Shown here: positions 159 through 6,469 of the stretch, in pieces
Layout: every line of letters begins with the position of its first letter
How positions within the stretch are numbered: the stretch's first letter is position 1
IMG/VR virus record: IMGVR_UViG_2648501150_000029
Length of the DNA stretch: 6,469 bases
Direction: 5' to 3' (one strand)
Origin: a virus
Lineage: Duplodnaviria; Heunggongvirae; Uroviricota; Caudoviricetes
The notes under the pieces: generated by a model
The model's database searches: none
Seen by the model: the letters and a program-made list of their open reading frames with translations, nothing else
What the model was told of the DNA's origin: nothing
Position numbers and translations under genes: made by a program

Positions 159-273
159 CGGTTAAAAATTCTGAATAAATAATCCTAAGCAAAATTGCTG
201 ACTACACTTAATCTCACGTTCAGAAGAAAAGTGAACGTACTCTCATTCACAACCTAACGATGAGGTCTTGATT

Positions 274-483
274 ATGAATAAAGATGAAGCCGGCGGTAAC
301 TGGAAACAGTTTAAAGGTAAAGTGAAAGAGCAATGGGGCAAACTGACCGATGATGATATGACGATCATTGAAGGAAAACGTGATCAGTTAGTGGGTAAAA
401 TCCAGGAGCGCTACGGTTATCAGAAAGATCAGGCAGAAAAAGAGGTTGATAGTTGGGAAAAACGCCATGATTACCGCTGGTAA
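274..483 (+). CDS. yjbJ: CsbD-like small stress-response protein YjbJ (UPF0337 family), 69 aa
   Basis: ATG at 274 preceded by GAGG (262-265) at 8 nt spacing; stop TAA 481-483. Product MNKDEAGGNWKQFKGKVKEQWGKLTDDDMTIIEGKRDQLVGKIQERYGYQ... matches E. coli YjbJ as I recall it. The ORF-track start at 268 is a TTG two codons upstream and is less likely. Confidence 0.85.
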   Translation: MNKDEAGGNWKQFKGKVKEQWGKLTDDDMTIIEGKRDQLVGKIQERYGYQKDQAEKEVDSWEKRHDYRW

Positions 484-524: not shown

Positions 525-1040
525 TTAGCGAGGTTTCTTTTTCACCTGAATAGAGTGGTCATGATGGCACTGTTCAGGATGACGACACGCTTCTACTTCT
601 ACACATGCTGAACATAATCCATGTGCTTCAATAACATTATGCCGCAGGGCAAAACCCATTTTTGCCGCCAGCGTATGCATGATGTCTTCCACGCCTTCAG
701 CACATTCTTCTTTCACCGCGCCGCAGCGATCGCAAATAAACATGGCTGAAGTATGGGTGGGCTGATCGAACAGATGACAGAGCACATAACTGTTGGTGGA
801 TTCCACCTTATGCACAAAACCTTGTTCAAGCAGAAACTCCAGCGCGCGATAAACCGTTGGCGGCTTGGCTTGCGGTTCAGCTTCGCGCAGCAAATCAAGC
901 AGATCATAAGCGCTGATAGCGCCATCCTGCAGACTCATCAGGCGCAACACTTCGAGACGCTGTGGGGTCAGGCGCACATTACGCTGTGCGCAGATTTTTT
1001 CAGCCTGCGCTAATAACTCCTGCGTTGTGGTCTTTTCCAT
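525..1040 (-). CDS. zur: Zinc uptake regulator Zur (Fur family), 171 aa
   Basis: Minus-strand ORF; ATG at 1040-1038 gives MEKTTTQELLAQAEKICAQRNVRLTPQRLEVLRLM..., with the Fur-family HTH region and CxxC pairs (CDRCG, CSACVEVEAC), ending ...HDHSIQVKKKPR at TAA 527-525. A GAGG lies 6 nt upstream of this ATG. The 252-aa ORF in the track (to 1283) is an in-frame upstream extension without its own RBS. Confidence 0.9.
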   Translation of the reverse strand: MEKTTTQELLAQAEKICAQRNVRLTPQRLEVLRLMSLQDGAISAYDLLDLLREAEPQAKPPTVYRALEFLLEQGFVHKVESTNSYVLCHLFDQPTHTSAMFICDRCGAVKEECAEGVEDIMHTLAAKMGFALRHNVIEAHGLCSACVEVEACRHPEQCHHDHSIQVKKKPR

Positions 1041-1110: not shown

Positions 1111-1356
1111 GGTGTCATGGCTGTCACATTGCCTGATCGCATATTCGTTATGCTATAGTAGCGCCCCCAATTTACCAGATGCTTAAAAAGTCGCCATGCC
1201 AGCAGAATCACACACTGTTTATCCCGCTTACCGTTTCTCGATTGCCCCGATGCTTGATAGGATGTACCGTTTTTGAAAAACAACTAGTTATACACTTTGT
1301 GGGAGCCTATTGGGAACCTGTTATTCTTAGAAAGCATCATTTGCTCATCACTTCAA

Positions 1357-1511: not shown

Positions 1512-2084
1512 ATGTTTTGCGAAGAAAAAGTAGCTCAAATGGCTGCATACCTACTTCTTAAGCGAGGTGGGCGCATGGCATATCTGAAATTGATGAAGTT
1601 GCTCTATCTGTCTAACCGCCAGTCGATTTTGAAGCATGGCAGGATGATCGGCGAAGATAGCCTTTACTCTATGAAATTTGGACCAGTCATGTCGAATACG
1701 CTGAACTTGATTCGCGGTAAGGCTGAAGGCATTGGTGACTACTGGTACAACTTGATAGAGACGAACGGGCATAATGTATCGTTGCGTTCAGATCCGAGGG
1801 AAATGGATGCAGACGAGGTCTTTGATGAATTGAGTCGTGCAGATATCCGGATTTTAGATGAAATCTATTCTCGGTATGGGCATATGAACCGATTTGATCT
1901 CGCAAATATGACGCATTTAGAAAGCGTTTGTCCAGAGTGGCACGATCCTGGCAATTCTCGTAAGCCTATAGACCTGAAAGAAATGCTGATCAGTGAGGGT
2001 AAAAGCGAGGATGAGGCTAATCGCATAATTGGCAAAATGGAAGAATCTCAGAAACTTAAGGAATTTTCTTTGCAATTATCATGA
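1512..2084 (+). CDS. Panacea-domain (DUF4065, GepA/SocA-like) protein; putative antitoxin or sensor component
   Basis: ATG at 1512 with GAGG 8 nt upstream. The N-terminal region (VAQMAAYLLLKRGGRMAYLKLMKLLYLSNRQSILKHGRMIGEDSLYSMKFGPVMSNTLNLIRG) has the K-L-x-K-L-L-Y-L ... F-G-P-V pattern I associate with Panacea/DUF4065 phage-associated proteins. Low GC compared with the flanks. Stop TGA 2082-2084 overlaps the next start. Confidence 0.6.
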   Translation: MFCEEKVAQMAAYLLLKRGGRMAYLKLMKLLYLSNRQSILKHGRMIGEDSLYSMKFGPVMSNTLNLIRGKAEGIGDYWYNLIETNGHNVSLRSDPREMDADEVFDELSRADIRILDEIYSRYGHMNRFDLANMTHLESVCPEWHDPGNSRKPIDLKEMLISEGKSEDEANRIIGKMEESQKLKEFSLQLS

Positions 2085-2539: not shown

Positions 2540-2713
2540 ATGGAAGATCAAAAAGCAACCAAGCCACAGGTTAAGTTCGACACAATGAAAGCATTCGCAG
2601 GTATGGGTGCTGCTGTTGAAGTTCTGATGAAGGCTGCTCCTAATGCGTTCACTCACGCTACTGTCTCTGGTAAAGAGCAGCAGGGTAAGCTTCGTCGTCG
2701 CAAAGCAGCATGA
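2540..2713 (+). CDS. Small hypothetical protein, 57 aa (MEDQKATKPQVKFDTMKAFAGMGAAVEVLMKAAPNAFTHATVSGKEQQGKLRRRKAA)
   Basis: Not in the ORF track (under 60 aa). ATG at 2540 preceded by AGGAG (2529-2533) at 6 nt spacing; stop TGA 2711-2713; followed within 20 nt by an intrinsic terminator. Basic C-terminal tail. No family recognised. Confidence 0.45.
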   Translation: MEDQKATKPQVKFDTMKAFAGMGAAVEVLMKAAPNAFTHATVSGKEQQGKLRRRKAA

Positions 2714-2760: not shown

Positions 2761-3042
2761 TTAGTGATGTTCTTTGCCCTTCTGTTTGCTTGTTCTGACC
2801 TGTTCCCACTCGATACGTCCTTCTTCTCGTCTTTTGTCTATGTATTCCGCAAGATCCTGAATATTGATGCAACGTTTTGCTTTTTGTGATGTGCCGATGC
2901 GATATGTTGGAACGGGCAACTTACAAGCGTTTGCTTTTGCTTCTGCCGTGGCTGGACTCATGCCAAAGTACTTTTGGCTAACTGCTGAGAGTTCAATGTT
3001 AGGGGTATTGAATTCAGCCATCAGTAAAAACAAGGTGTTCAT
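2761..3042 (-). CDS. Excisionase-like / PrtN-family small DNA-binding regulator, 93 aa
   Basis: Best start is ATG at 3042-3040, preceded by GGAG at 6 nt spacing; the ORF-track start at 3069 is a GTG with no SD. Product MNTLFLLMAEFNTPNIELSAVSQKYFGMSPATAEAKANACKLPVPTYRIGTSQKAKRCINIQDLAEYIDKRRE... has the MNTLFLLMA N-terminus that I associate with PrtN/excisionase-like prophage proteins. It is the last gene of the prophage operon. Confidence 0.6.
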   Translation of the reverse strand: MNTLFLLMAEFNTPNIELSAVSQKYFGMSPATAEAKANACKLPVPTYRIGTSQKAKRCINIQDLAEYIDKRREEGRIEWEQVRTSKQKGKEHH

Positions 3043-3078: not shown

Positions 3079-3651
3079 TCATAATTCTGTGCTGGTGGCA
3101 GGAATTAATTTCTGCCAGATAGCGGAAACATATTTTGCCTGATGACGGGCATCAGCCAGGGCGTTGTGCCGTTCGCCATCGAAAGGCATGTCCATTTTGG
3201 GGTCGAATCCGATGGAACGCCCAAGCGTAACGATCGTGCGTACATCGTGGTCATTCCAGTATGCCCACGGGCAGATTTGTCCTGCTCGCTCATAAGCTCC
3301 ACGTAAAATTACGTTGTCGAAGGTGGCTCCGTTACCCCAGACTTTTAAATATTTCGTATTGTCTGCGTGCCGGTTAATGAAATGATTTAGTTCTGAGAGA
3401 GCATCGCTGATCGACAAAGTATCATCAATACAGATTGCAGCTCGTGCTTCAGGGCTTTGTTTCAACCACCACAGGATGGTATCGCCGTCAGGTGTAGCTC
3501 CTTGCCCCATAGCACTTTCCAGGCTAACAACCGTATAGAATTCTTGTCCGATGTCTCCGGTTTCTGGAGTGAAGAACACCGCGCCAATGGAAACGATCGG
3601 TGCATCCTTATTTTTCCCCATCGTCTCAAGGTCGATCATTAAGTTGTTCAT
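3079..3651 (-). CDS. DEDDh-family (DnaQ-like) 3'-5' exonuclease, prophage-encoded, 190 aa
   Basis: ATG at 3651-3649 with AGAGGTG SD 5 nt upstream; it overlaps the upstream stop (TGATG). N-terminal Exo I motif MIDLETMG (D-x-E) and C-terminal H-x-A-x-x-D-A (ERHNALADARH), diagnostic of DEDDh exonucleases. By position this is the full-length counterpart of the ypdJ exonuclease fragment I recall in K-12 CPS-53. Confidence 0.75.
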   Translation of the reverse strand: MNNLMIDLETMGKNKDAPIVSIGAVFFTPETGDIGQEFYTVVSLESAMGQGATPDGDTILWWLKQSPEARAAICIDDTLSISDALSELNHFINRHADNTKYLKVWGNGATFDNVILRGAYERAGQICPWAYWNDHDVRTIVTLGRSIGFDPKMDMPFDGERHNALADARHQAKYVSAIWQKLIPATSTEL

Positions 3652-4460
3652 CACTTCACCTCTTGTGATGGTTTTGCTGCAAAATACTCGATACCTTTAT
3701 CCCAGATAGATTTTATGGTCGACCACGTGACTGGCACTTTAATTTCAATACGTCCGCTCCCGTCACAGGTATCGCAATCATCATCGCCAAAGCATTCCAG
3801 GCAGCTTATAAACGTAGTTTCTGAAAATTCACCGGATAGCGCCCCCTTAGCGCCGTTCTCGGCTGTTAGTCTCTTCGGCACCATAACCCAACCATCCGGA
3901 GTTACCGGAGAGTTGCCAGACAGTGCGTTCTGCAATCGTTCCAGCTTAACGTATTCCTGAACCCTGTTTCCGTCGCACGCCTGAAGCCATTGCACAGCCT
4001 TTTGCGCATCAGTGTGAAAGGCACAAGTGCGACCGTCATCAAATTGCATTTCGTAGAGGTCAGCAACCTGTTTAAACTGCGTTTGTGGCAACTTGTAAGC
4101 CTGGCTTGCAGGTACGGCACCATAGAGCATGGCAGCGCGGCAGGCGTTCCAGCCTTCATCAAAACCGACTATGCCATTATTTAAAGACGGACGAGCATCT
4201 GGCACCACCGGCACTGGCTTGGCTATATATAGCGGCTGAACATACCAGCCCTTTGATAACCAACTGTCAGCAATGTTTTTACTCCTGGTTATTGCCGGAA
4301 TACCTAAGCCATTGTCTGAATGCAGCCATGCCACCGGATCCTCTTCCAGCGATGCCAGAGCAATTTCATAAGCACGGCGCTCAACATTGTCTCGCACGTC
4401 CATGCTGCTGATTCGTTCTTTGATTTCTTTAATCAGTTCTTTATCGGTAAATGTGGTCAT
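3651..4460 (-). CDS. Hypothetical prophage protein, 269 aa, with C-terminal CxxC / CxxCxGxG zinc-ribbon-like motif (in the YfdT position)
   Basis: ATG at 4460-4458 with GGAGG/GGAG upstream; overlaps the upstream stop (TAATG). C-terminus ...TTFISCLECFGDDDCDTCDGSGRIEIKV contains CLEC and CDTCDGSG (CxxCxGxG, the DnaJ-type zinc-finger signature). Stop TGA 3653-3651. Function unknown. Confidence 0.6.
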   Translation of the reverse strand: MTTFTDKELIKEIKERISSMDVRDNVERRAYEIALASLEEDPVAWLHSDNGLGIPAITRSKNIADSWLSKGWYVQPLYIAKPVPVVPDARPSLNNGIVGFDEGWNACRAAMLYGAVPASQAYKLPQTQFKQVADLYEMQFDDGRTCAFHTDAQKAVQWLQACDGNRVQEYVKLERLQNALSGNSPVTPDGWVMVPKRLTAENGAKGALSGEFSETTFISCLECFGDDDCDTCDGSGRIEIKVPVTWSTIKSIWDKGIEYFAAKPSQEVK

Positions 4461-4822
4461 TATGCTCCAGCCTCCGGTGCTTTTGGCATTACTGCCCAGT
4501 GAGTGATGTTGACGTTTTCAAGGTCCCCGACCTGAAATGTCCACTGCCATTCTCCGGTTTCTTTTTGCCCCCATGTATACCAGAGAGAACGCCAGCCAAT
4601 CAGCCAGCCTTCTCCATTAGCATCAAATAACAGAACACTTTCATTCGCTGGCGGCAGTTCAGCTGACACTGGTATTACTTTGTTTTCCAGTGCTGCACAT
4701 TTAGCTTCAAGCGCATCAAATTTACGCACCAGGTATTCAGCATCCGTTTCATTCACTTTCAGATCTCGCGGTACACATTTCCCGCGAAGAAATCCTTCCA
4801 TTTCGAAAACATTCATGCGCAT
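4460..4822 (-). CDS. yfdS: YfdS-like prophage protein, 120 aa
   Basis: ATG at 4822-4820 with GGAG 8 nt upstream; overlaps the yfdR stop by 10 nt. A second in-frame ATG at 4816 forms an ATGA overlap with that stop. Assignment rests on the yfdQ-yfdR-yfdS order and the matching 120-aa length recalled for K-12; no motif recognised. Confidence 0.6.
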   Translation of the reverse strand: MRMNVFEMEGFLRGKCVPRDLKVNETDAEYLVRKFDALEAKCAALENKVIPVSAELPPANESVLLFDANGEGWLIGWRSLWYTWGQKETGEWQWTFQVGDLENVNITHWAVMPKAPEAGA

Positions 4823-5349
4823 TTGCGTAACTCCGATAATTCGTTAAAGCGTTCCATAAACATCCCGTAGGCATGGCCTGGAGCCAGTGGAATCACGTTG
4901 AACATCTCTGTTGCCGGGATACCTTCCAGTACAGGCCAGAAAGAGCCATCATCAAGCCCGAGATCGCGGCGTTCGGTTGCCAGCATGATGAGATCGGCAT
5001 ATTTCACGGGCGTACTCATAACCGGTGGTAACCCGTATTTCTCACGGATTACGGCGTCTATTTTTTCTTCCATCCGTTTATAGTCAGGAAGAAGGCGTTT
5101 CAGTGGTGCGGGAATGTCCTGGCAATACGCTTCTGTTGCATCATGCATTAACGCTTCAAAAGCAAATTCCTGCGGCACCAGCTGGCTGCAAAGAACCGCA
5201 TGTTGGGCGACGCTGTAGAAGTGCGAAAGATGACCGGCAAAGCGACAGATATTTGAAAGGGAAACCGCGATATCGTTAATATCGATGTCGTCTTTATTTA
5301 TCCTGTCATAATAAAAATGCTTCCCAGAAAAAGTTTTGATAAATGACAT
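4813..5349 (-). CDS. yfdR: HD-domain phosphohydrolase (5'-deoxynucleotidase-like), YfdR, 178 aa
   Basis: Best start is ATG 5349-5347 (MSFIKTFSGKHFYYD...) with GGAG 6 nt upstream; the ORF-track start at 5376 is a GTG without SD. HD-domain signature visible: ...H-x-x-x-H... (GHLSHFYSVAQH) and ALMHDATEAY (the H-D dyad). The 178-aa length matches K-12 YfdR as recalled. Confidence 0.8.
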   Translation of the reverse strand: MSFIKTFSGKHFYYDRINKDDIDINDIAVSLSNICRFAGHLSHFYSVAQHAVLCSQLVPQEFAFEALMHDATEAYCQDIPAPLKRLLPDYKRMEEKIDAVIREKYGLPPVMSTPVKYADLIMLATERRDLGLDDGSFWPVLEGIPATEMFNVIPLAPGHAYGMFMERFNELSELRKCA

Positions 5350-5442
5350 TTTGTTCTCCACGTATATGCGCTGCACCGCGCTGAATTCTGGTAAAAAGAA
5401 TCCCTCACCATCCGGCGATTATTGAGTAAATTACGTTTCCAT

Positions 5443-5464
5443 AAATGCCCCCGCAGGGGCATTT
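5443..5464. other. Perfect 22-bp palindrome / stable hairpin between yfdQ and yfdR
   Basis: aaatgcccc-cgca-ggggcattt: a 9-bp perfect inverted repeat with a 4-nt loop. It lies 13 nt downstream of the yfdQ stop and about 85 nt upstream of the yfdR start on the minus-strand transcript. No clean U-tract follows on either strand, so it is not a canonical intrinsic terminator. Confidence 0.5.
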
Positions 5465-5476
5465 GCAGTAATGAAA

Positions 5477-6301
5477 TCAGGCGGTGAAAGTACCAATAAA
5501 GGTTTCTACTTTGCTGTCCTTGAATTTCTCAACAAGCAGATCACGAAATTCGTTAGCCATTTCTTCCTGCACCGCCTCCAGCTGAATAATGCGCAGAACC
5601 AGTACAGGACGATCGCCAGTGATAATGCTGAGGCGTAATTTAAACGGACGTTCTTTCAGACCTTCAAACGGAACGCATTTAAATTCAAATGCCACTGGCA
5701 TAATGTCTTTGGTCTTCGCTTCGACAGACTCCATCAGGGAGCGTTTGCCGCTGAAGTCATTGTCTTCAAAATCAGCGGTCTGGTTCGCTTCAATTGTGAT
5801 TTTACGGATCGCCGCAGCCGCTTTGGTTGCCTGAATGGCGTCACCATTAGCATCAAAGCCCACAAGGTAGTCTGCCCAGTCTTCAATCCATTCTGCCAGT
5901 GACTTCTGGGAGTTACGCTCGCCATTAACAGACAACAGAGCAGAGAACGGTGCTGTCTTTTTCAGTTTGAGAGTGGCGGTGTTATCTGCGTGACCTGGTT
6001 CATCAATAGTACCCAGGTTAAGCACACTGACGGCTCGCATATTATCGGCATCGATAAAGCAGCGGGTGCCTTCATCTGCAAGATCTTTAGAATAACGGGT
6101 AAAGTCATCGATGCTGGCAGTGGAAAGTGCACCACGGAAACGGAAACGATTTAAATTAAATTTTTCCAGATCATGAATGCGGAAATTCTCAGGCAATGCC
6201 ACAGCATCGGCACCAATCTTACTGATAATTTCATTAACACCCTGAGCAGAAATAAGGGCATGGATTTGATTAATTGCGGTTGAGTCTAAGTTCTGAGACA
6301 T
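5477..6301 (-). CDS. yfdQ: DUF2303-family prophage protein YfdQ, 274 aa
   Basis: ATG at 6301-6299 with GAGG 8 nt upstream; stop TGA 5479-5477. Product [70 protein letters not shown]... matches in length and N-terminus what I recall of E. coli CPS-53 YfdQ. Identity is from recall. Confidence 0.75.
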
Positions 6302-6366
6302 AATAAGTCCTCACTATATTAAGATATTCAGTGATGAGATAAATAATCAGTTAATTAAGAACGATA

Positions 6367-6469
6367 TTAATGACCTGCTGCGCGGAGTTTTCCGTCAGGT
6401 TCACCGGCAAGAGTCAGTAATTGTCCCTGGTCTTCCTGCAGAATAGTCAGGCGACCACCGCGATTGACA
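6367..6469 (-). CDS. 3' end of the upstream prophage gene (YfdP-like by position), 5'-truncated by the window edge
   Basis: Minus-strand open frame running into the window end, terminating ...VNRGGRLTILQEDQGQLLTLAGEPDGKLRAAGH* at TAA 6369-6367. Named only by position upstream of yfdQ. Confidence 0.4.
   Translation of the reverse strand, partial: VNRGGRLTILQEDQGQLLTLAGEPDGKLRAAGH

Follow-up and report, generated by a model that had tools for sequence, protein, structure and literature searches.

An intact yfdQ-yfdR-yfdS cassette in an Escherichia coli prophage with a lambda-like early region and its possible part in host replication control

Does a prophage that carries the yfdQ, yfdR, and yfdS genes possess a means of controlling the replication of its host, or is this simply a common block of early genes whose K-12 counterpart acts on DnaA when overproduced? 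The question is raised by a stretch of Caudoviricetes DNA of 6,469 nucleotides (nt; IMG/VR virus record IMGVR_UViG_2648501150_000029), referred to here, at its full length, as the window, in which four intact, tightly packed open reading frames (ORFs) fill exactly positions 3651-6301 on the minus strand. An initial annotation, made from the letters alone, had placed these genes in the positions of yfdQ, yfdR, yfdS, and yfdT and had proposed that, if intact and full length, they could form a functional module for host takeover or replication control. We put at roughly 0.7 the probability that the locus is an intact, conserved yfdQ-yfdR-yfdS cassette in a lambda-like early operon, to which the biochemistry of the K-12 proteins applies and whose natural role we infer from it.

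Identity, intactness, and operon of the cassette

All four ORFs are uninterrupted, and the cluster is intact and full length. The names given to the first three genes were also correct. When compared with its counterpart in the K-12 prophage remnant CPS-53, YfdQ (274 amino acids [aa]; 5477-6301, minus strand; Pfam DUF2303, E 6.5e-93) is identical at 272 of 274 residues (99%), YfdR (4813-5349, minus strand) at 175 of 178 (98%), with the differences K16R, V23D, and D170E, and YfdS (4460-4822, minus strand) at 118 of 120 (98%). The identity of the cassette thus rests on direct sequence comparison. At the DNA level, the window is 96.1% identical to CPS-53 over positions 4343-6469, and the homology with K-12 stops at 4343, that is, 118 nt into the fourth gene.

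The differences from K-12 are mostly synonymous, with ratios of nonsynonymous to synonymous substitution rates (dN/dS) of 0.034 for yfdQ, 0.039 for yfdR, and 0.030 for yfdS, and all three genes are under strong purifying selection. The idea that the cluster is a decaying remnant was rejected, since the genes are intact, their dN/dS values lie between 0.03 and 0.04, and they are present in viable phages, with PhiR40_1, PhiR55_1, and PhiR47_1 carrying all four genes at 98% identity. An intact and selected cassette, in viable phages and in what is apparently a complete prophage, is the right setting in which to distinguish a phage strategy from an artefact.

The cassette itself is already known and very common, and only the mosaic fourth gene is uncharacterised. 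At least 80% of the length of yfdQRS is present in 2298 of the 5426 complete E. coli genomes (a single genome may match at as many as five places), and 138 records of phages gave matches, among them those of SfV, SfIV, cdtI, and Stx phages. Such yfd blocks have been described as common in the early-left operons of phages whose organisation is lambda-like, with no known function (PMC12315714). As this is among the commonest of E. coli prophage gene blocks, and the K-12 copy has already been studied, one more copy adds little by itself.

The HD phosphohydrolase signature that had been read in YfdR is real. Residues R36-F37, H50, H69-D70, E73, D78, and D119 are present, and of these, H50, H69-D70, E73, and D78 do not vary between YfdR and its homologues from Klebsiella and Yersinia (65% and 58% identical, respectively) within the region common to all aligned proteins. 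The core, which takes the form HDAxE...DxPxPxK, aligns with that of E. coli YfbR. The Pfam YfbR-like model (PF12917) scores 24.2 bits against YfdR, just below its gathering cut-off of 25.9, and the NCBIfam equivalog for YfbR (NF003009) scores 19.9 bits, far under its cut-off of 122. Matches were found to PHROG 318, "deoxyribonucleoside 5' monophosphate phosphatase" (E 1e-111), and to PDB entry 2gz4 (Atu1052; E 3e-14), and both RefSeq and PHROG label the protein as a 5'-deoxynucleotidase. By these comparisons, YfdR is assigned to a phage-type branch of the HD superfamily and is not the orthologue of YfbR. Care should be taken with the start codon: the ATG at 5349, which is preceded by the ribosome-binding site GGAGAA, gives the protein of 178 aa, and the 187-aa version that begins at a GTG is an artefact of the ORF caller, which reports the mechanical maximum.

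YfdS (120 aa), whose gene overlaps yfdR by 10 nt, consists of an N-terminal helical module followed by DUF551, the Pfam match to which is at threshold (22.1 bits against a cut-off of 22). It matches PHROG 583 and is labelled "EaE" in phage records. On direct comparison, no sequence similarity was found between YfdS and either YfdT or the 269-aa product of the fourth gene; the ability of YfdS and YfdT to replace each other in K-12, to which we return below, is therefore not explained by shared sequence.

In the case of YfdQ, a solved homologue exists, PDB entry 9o7m ("YfdQ protein", 36 chains in the entry), with 39% identity over the part recovered by the alignment. Its sequence is that of Xanthomonas/Xylella phages (L013 6962-7786), and DUF2303 proteins occur also in actinophages. 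The 36 chains give a hint of a large YfdQ oligomer. The literature searched contained no paper on 9o7m or on any YfdQ structure, although, with a homologue now solved, the function of DUF2303 may soon be clarified. The predicted model of YfdQ is usable (predicted local distance difference test [pLDDT] score, 78). A Foldseek search of this model against PDB entries released up to 2026-04-08 returned no match at E<=0.001, with 9o7m not among the matches, and a search against the viral structures of BFVD matched only other uncharacterised DUF2303 proteins.

The layout of the region points to one leftward early operon made up of yfdP, yfdQ, yfdR, yfdS, the fourth gene, an exonuclease gene, and an excisionase-like gene. 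From yfdR to the exonuclease, successive genes overlap by 10, 1, and 1 nt, and a scan of the coding strand inside the cluster found no promoter- or terminator-like sites above chance. The initial annotation had drawn a unit of four genes at 3651-6301; the four genes stand, but the extent was too small, as the unit runs from yfdP through the exonuclease gene to the excisionase-like gene.

The genome closest to the window is that of MS1679, which matches it over its full length at 99.4% identity. In this genome, the genes found upstream of the cassette are yfdP, two small genes, and a ClpX-type zinc-finger gene, followed by a 10/12 promoter-like site and the gene for a cI-like repressor with helix-turn-helix and Peptidase_S24 domains. 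Because it lies downstream of a repressor with an S24 self-cleavage domain, the operon would be expected to be silent in the lysogen and switched on under SOS induction. The order of repressor, yfdP, yfdQ, yfdR, variable small genes, Rv2179c-type exonuclease, xis, and int recurs in Klebsiella and Yersinia prophages, and yfdP-yfdQ recurs in Xenorhabdus. As a separate observation, the stretch that separates the cI-like repressor gene from the candidate early-left promoter in the closest genome holds a gene for a BRCT-domain protein (L001 28019-28909, plus strand), which is unusual to find in an immunity region.

The K-12 replication effect and the role of the cassette

The published work on the K-12 cluster to which the initial annotation referred exists and reports what was stated of it (Noguchi & Katayama 2016, PMC4776307). 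There, yfdQ-T emerged as a multicopy suppressor of hda-185, extra copies of yfdQRST were found to inhibit initiation in several backgrounds, and the minimal multicopy set that lowers initiation at oriC was yfdQ and yfdR together with either yfdS or yfdT (PMC4776307). K-12 YfdR is described as an HD-domain 5'-deoxynucleotidase of low nucleotide affinity, which binds domain I of DnaA in a Phe46-dependent manner and competes moderately with DiaA and DnaB (PMC4776307). In the same paper, this affinity is reported to be much lower than that of YfbR, and the phosphatase activity of K-12 YfdR on deoxyribonucleoside monophosphates (dNMPs) is given as weak (Zimmerman 2008, as cited in PMC4776307).

The minimal set is complete here without YfdT, since YfdQ, YfdR, and YfdS are all present and intact. 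As the three genes are complete at 98-99% protein identity, the phenotype should transfer whatever the fourth gene is, and the K-12 overexpression phenotype would very probably be reproduced with the present copy. The K-12 phenotype, as published, does not require the 269-aa protein.

One may then picture the following course of events. SOS induction would release a burst of expression from the early-left operon, and YfdQ, YfdR, and YfdS would become abundant. If the biochemistry of the K-12 proteins holds for those encoded here, YfdR acting with YfdQ and YfdS would damp initiation at the host oriC, and/or YfdR would remodel the dNMP pool in a manner that favours replication of the phage DNA.

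Several points weigh against a role in replication control and should be kept in mind. In K-12, deletion of yfdQRST altered neither initiation nor hydroxyurea resistance; the replication effect was seen only with multicopy plasmids or overexpression, and the authors themselves concede that it may be an artefact; and in pull-downs, YfdQ, YfdS, and YfdT had no strong affinity for YfdR or DnaA (PMC4776307), so that the requirement for these proteins is unexplained. YfdR differs from the K-12 protein at the three residues listed above. Expression from a repressor-controlled early promoter is deduced from the layout of the genes. DnaA boxes are not enriched in the window (one match against 0.8 by chance, and that one in zur), and YfdR-type HD enzymes are found in 324 phage records from very different hosts. 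The assignment of the cassette to host takeover or replication control is thus drawn from multicopy overexpression only, and as a natural role it is unproven.

It is from the wide distribution of YfdR that the main rival explanation draws much of its strength. These 324 records include virulent and jumbo phages of Bacillus, Caulobacter, Vibrio, and Pseudomonas, and since such enzymes span virulent and jumbo phages and distant hosts, it can be argued that the conserved function is enzymatic and not the binding of E. coli DnaA; a contact specific to E. coli cannot be the conserved trait. The real function would then be the remodelling of nucleotide pools by YfdR as a dNMP phosphatase, which would adjust deoxynucleotide pools or remove dNMPs not wanted while phage DNA is made, with DnaA binding and the block to initiation as side-effects of overexpression. 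The strict conservation of the metal-binding and catalytic residues of the HD domain, the name 5'-deoxynucleotidase given by RefSeq and PHROG, and the artefact that the authors of the DnaA study admit as possible are all in keeping with this explanation, which our analysis graded both as the main rival and as an equally good reading. Purified YfdR nevertheless binds DnaA specifically, with Phe46 important for the contact (PMC4776307), and the need for yfdQ and for yfdS or yfdT is not explained by a purely enzymatic model, so that we regard it as tentative and somewhat doubtful in its exclusive form.

Two further explanations are weaker than that of nucleotide pools. The position of the cassette, with the immunity region on one side and xis on the other as in lambda, has raised the prospect of a module for DNA-end processing or recombination in place of lambda exo-bet-gam, in which YfdQ, possibly as a large oligomer (36 chains being present in the one PDB entry of its solved homologue), would work with the 3'-5' exonuclease. 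The cluster is translationally coupled to this Rv2179c-type exonuclease, which is also kept downstream in Klebsiella and Yersinia, and in the Xanthomonas/Xylella phages the DUF2303 gene stands just upstream of those for Erf, a YqaJ exonuclease, and SSB. We nonetheless consider such a function unlikely, as the cluster occurs together with a full and distinct Rec module in phage ArgO145, and the block is in the view of Casjens and colleagues probably not one for recombination (PMC12315714). A benefit to the lysogen, in which low-level expression would slow initiation and help the host to survive stress from hydrogen peroxide (H2O2), methyl methanesulfonate (MMS), or acid, seems to us similarly improbable. 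K-12 deletions of yfdQ or yfdS are reported to be sensitive to H2O2 or MMS (Wang 2010 and Rooney 2009, as cited in PMC4776307), the genes are intact and under purifying selection even in the defective CPS-53, and a preprint reports that production of YfdQ affected plaque formation by phage SW1. The stress phenotypes are, however, described as weak in PMC4776307, the genes belong to an early operon under repressor control and lack a promoter of their own that exceeds chance, and the block is shared by virulent-like phages of Xanthomonas and by many phages that can be induced.

The fourth gene, the flanking genes, and the prophage

The fourth gene (3651-4460, minus strand), whose start codon shares 1 nt with the stop codon of yfdS (TAATG), occupies the yfdT position and encodes a protein of 269 aa. 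The initial annotation had treated it as an uncharacterised member of the cluster; uncharacterised it is, but it is not a YfdT-like member. With the 101-aa YfdT of K-12, the protein has in common only residues 1-42 (81% identity) and a few residues at the very end (..QEVK), and an orthologous relationship was ruled out, given that nothing beyond aa 1-42 aligns and that the DNA homology ends at 4343. The protein is tied to YfdQRS only by its position and by translational coupling.

Comparison with 120 relatives divides the 269-aa protein into seven modules, all encoded on the minus strand. The YfdT-like N-terminal helices (aa 1-42, nt 4335-4460) are followed by a variable module ending in PLY..PVPVVP (aa 43-95, nt 4176-4334), a GWNACRAAML motif (aa 96-112, nt 4125-4175), an optional module (aa 113-177, nt 3930-4124), and the near-invariant linker NALSGNSPVTPDGW (aa 178-191, nt 3888-3929). 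The next module (aa 192-263, nt 3672-3887) carries four cysteines, C220, C223, C229, and C232, and closes with a CxxCxGxG ending, after which comes the conserved tail P.QEVK (aa 264-269), whose codons run over the ribosome-binding site and start of the gene that follows. In relatives with 94-97% identity over aa 1-198, DUF551 stands in place of the four-cysteine module, and in the 269-aa protein itself there was no Pfam match to DUF551.

The four-cysteine module alone is found in more than 1300 clusters at 50% identity, in proteins of 104-442 aa. Among the 150 representatives listed, all 148 that were newly returned keep the four cysteines and 140 of the 148 keep the CxxCxGxG ending. When compared with the cysteine-rich region of DnaJ, the protein possesses one CxxC-x5-CxxCxGxG unit, with no Pfam match and a model pLDDT of 44. 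No match to the whole protein was found in Pfam (at the gathering score, nor in a list extended to E = 10), NCBIfam, PADLOC, or the PDB sequences, and its PHROG matches are only to groups of unknown function. Structure prediction from a 45-sequence alignment was unusable (mean pLDDT 44; predicted template modelling score 0.24).

An identical 269-aa protein is common in E. coli, where it is annotated as "hypothetical protein". The DNA specific to it is complete in 71 of the 5426 E. coli genomes and occurs in pieces in 1209, where these pieces are annotated, for example, as DUF551 protein or ead/Ea22-like protein. The "Ea22" label given to the homologue in phage records is unsupported, as a BLASTP comparison with lambda Ea22 returned nothing. 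The 269-aa protein is one among the shuffled, modular genes that fill the slot between yfdR and the exonuclease, and one of thousands of recombinants. This "yfdT" slot is a hot spot of module shuffling, and the YfdT of K-12 should not be taken as typical of it.

It is conceivable, though we would give the idea very little weight, that the proteins of the variable slot (YfdS, YfdT, the 269-aa protein, and other recombinants) are interchangeable adaptors, whose shared helical N-termini would dock on an assembly of YfdR with YfdQ, the latter as the large oligomer at which the 36 chains of 9o7m hint, while their swappable C-terminal modules, DUF551 or the four-cysteine module, choose the host target, with DnaA as one of several. 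If true, the idea would account for the fact that in K-12 one of YfdS and YfdT is enough despite their lack of sequence similarity, and it would make the 269-aa protein a retargeting variant.

At the upstream edge of the window lies the 3' part of yfdP (6367-6469, minus strand), which is cut by the window end and is annotated at L001 26367-26729 in the closest genome. A gene of the YfdP family (PF27127) stands directly upstream of the DUF2303 gene in the Klebsiella, Yersinia, and Xenorhabdus loci. The spacer between yfdQ and yfdR, at 127 bp, contains a GC-rich hairpin with a 9-bp stem and a 4-nt loop (inverted repeat at 5443-5464, minus strand), 13 nt past the yfdQ stop codon. The hairpin appears in both the minimum-free-energy and the centroid folds, and the spacer has a fold z of -2.2. 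Only a short U tract is present and the hairpin is absent from the list of the consensus terminator scan; it is possibly a weak terminator, an attenuator, or an RNA-stabilising element. A weak, sub-threshold Rfam match (STnc100, 5306-5485) overlaps it.

Downstream of the cluster, the Rv2179c-like 3'-5' exonuclease gene (3079-3651, minus strand; Pfam PF16473, E 4e-75) encodes a DEDDh-type protein of 190 aa from its ATG and is coupled to the 269-aa gene by the 1-nt overlap TGATG. This gene is intact in the window, in contrast to the closest genome, where it is annotated as a pseudogene with an internal stop; in PADLOC, its product weakly matches a DEDDh model of the CRISPR-associated kind. The leftward operon closes with a PrtN-family or excisionase-like gene (2761-3042, minus strand; L001 22761-23042), which matches Pfam PyocinActivator (E 4e-23) and PHROG 1300, "excisionase" (E 8e-40). 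The terminator scan found that the operon ends at a strong bidirectional intrinsic terminator (2732-2757), with an 11-bp stem and T/A runs on both sides, between this gene and a convergent 57-aa ORF (2540-2713, plus strand; PHROG 2741). The Rfam matches clustered at about 2700-2760 are weak, sub-threshold, and to terminator-like stem-loops.

The window belongs to the E. coli chromosome and opens with yjbJ (268-483, plus strand) and zur (annotated at 525-1040, minus strand; the listed ORF of 252 aa is the mechanical maximum only). All 5426 complete E. coli genomes match some part of the window, and 118 match at least 80% of it. The rest of the window, from about position 1260, is the left end of a prophage. 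In the closest genome, the immunity and early region of this prophage is lambda-like, its head is of the HK97 type, its tail is contractile and has a baseplate, and a tyrosine integrase lies at its far end, adjoining dusA (L005 12009-14232).

The displaced 5' end of the native dusA is found at 1196-1258 (plus strand), where it encodes MPAESHTVYPAYRFSIAPMLD before the frame is lost, and on the opposite side of the prophage, an intact dusA has a different N-terminus, after which it reads ...RFSIAPMLDWTDRH. Given this fragment and the intact gene with a different N-terminus opposite, the prophage is inserted in dusA, with the junction between prophage and chromosome at about 1245-1260, in the dusA fragment. 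A simple repeat search between the two prophage ends gave no clear attachment (att) core, and the junction is marked by the dusA 5' fragment.

Two further observations can be added. A Panacea-domain (SocA-like antitoxin) gene at 1512-2084 (plus strand) overlaps by 4 nt a 139-aa ORF (2081/2114-2500, plus strand; annotated as 128 aa) that has no family match, and the pair at 1512-2500 looks like a Panacea-type toxin-antitoxin system at the prophage end; in phage PhiR55_1, a pair annotated as YafM/YafO takes the equivalent place. In many genomes (matches H5-H15), the match to the window is split in two by about 1.5 kb annotated as a DUF2713 family protein, which is a variable insertion, or an absence here, somewhere in the window.

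Comparison with known systems

E. coli YfbR, the chromosomal 5'-deoxynucleotidase, shares with YfdR the HD-domain fold family, the HDAxE...DxPxPxK core, and the metal ligands. It differs in that the BLASTP match between the two spans only 40 residues, at 33% identity, and in that YfdR is phage-borne.

Among proteins that act on DnaA, such as DiaA, Bacillus subtilis SirA, Dps, and lambda P, K-12 YfdR works in a similar way, as it contacts domain I of DnaA around Phe46, at a surface that DiaA and DnaB also use and, in B. subtilis, SirA. YfdR has no sequence or fold relationship to the DnaA-acting proteins DiaA, SirA, Dps, and lambda P, the last of which targets DnaA domain III (PMC4776307), and it differs from them further in being an HD enzyme that requires co-expressed partners in vivo.

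The 269-aa gene stands in the slot of lambda Ea22, between the recombination or early genes and xis. Its product follows the mosaic building plan described for Ea22 proteins, namely, a shared N-terminal helical segment with swappable C-terminal domains that include DUF551 (PMC10834534), although it has no detectable similarity to lambda Ea22, and a C-terminal four-cysteine module is not described in that paper.

Further parallels are with whole gene blocks. SfV (orf29-31), SfIV, cdtI, ST64B (gp35-37), and LLS (gp37-39) carry a yfdP/yfdQ/yfdR block at the matching operon position. In SfV, SfIV, and cdtI, this block is 95-97% identical in DNA to the one here, and the YfdR proteins of ST64B and LLS are 67-69% identical to that encoded here. 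Where these phages differ is in the genes between yfdR and the exonuclease or xis, which vary from phage to phage; the full four-gene arrangement, at 98%, was found among phages only in PhiR40_1, PhiR55_1, and PhiR47_1, and in 71 of the 5426 E. coli genomes.

With K-12 CPS-53, the locus shares YfdQ, YfdR, and YfdS at 99%, 98%, and 98% identity, in identical order and orientation and with identical overlaps and spacer, and yfdP lies upstream in both. The fourth gene encodes the 101-aa YfdT in K-12 and the 269-aa protein here, and an intact 3'-5' exonuclease gene follows here, for which the searched stretch of K-12 yielded no homologue. Finally, the K-12 cluster resides in a remnant at argW, whereas the present one belongs to an apparently complete prophage at dusA.

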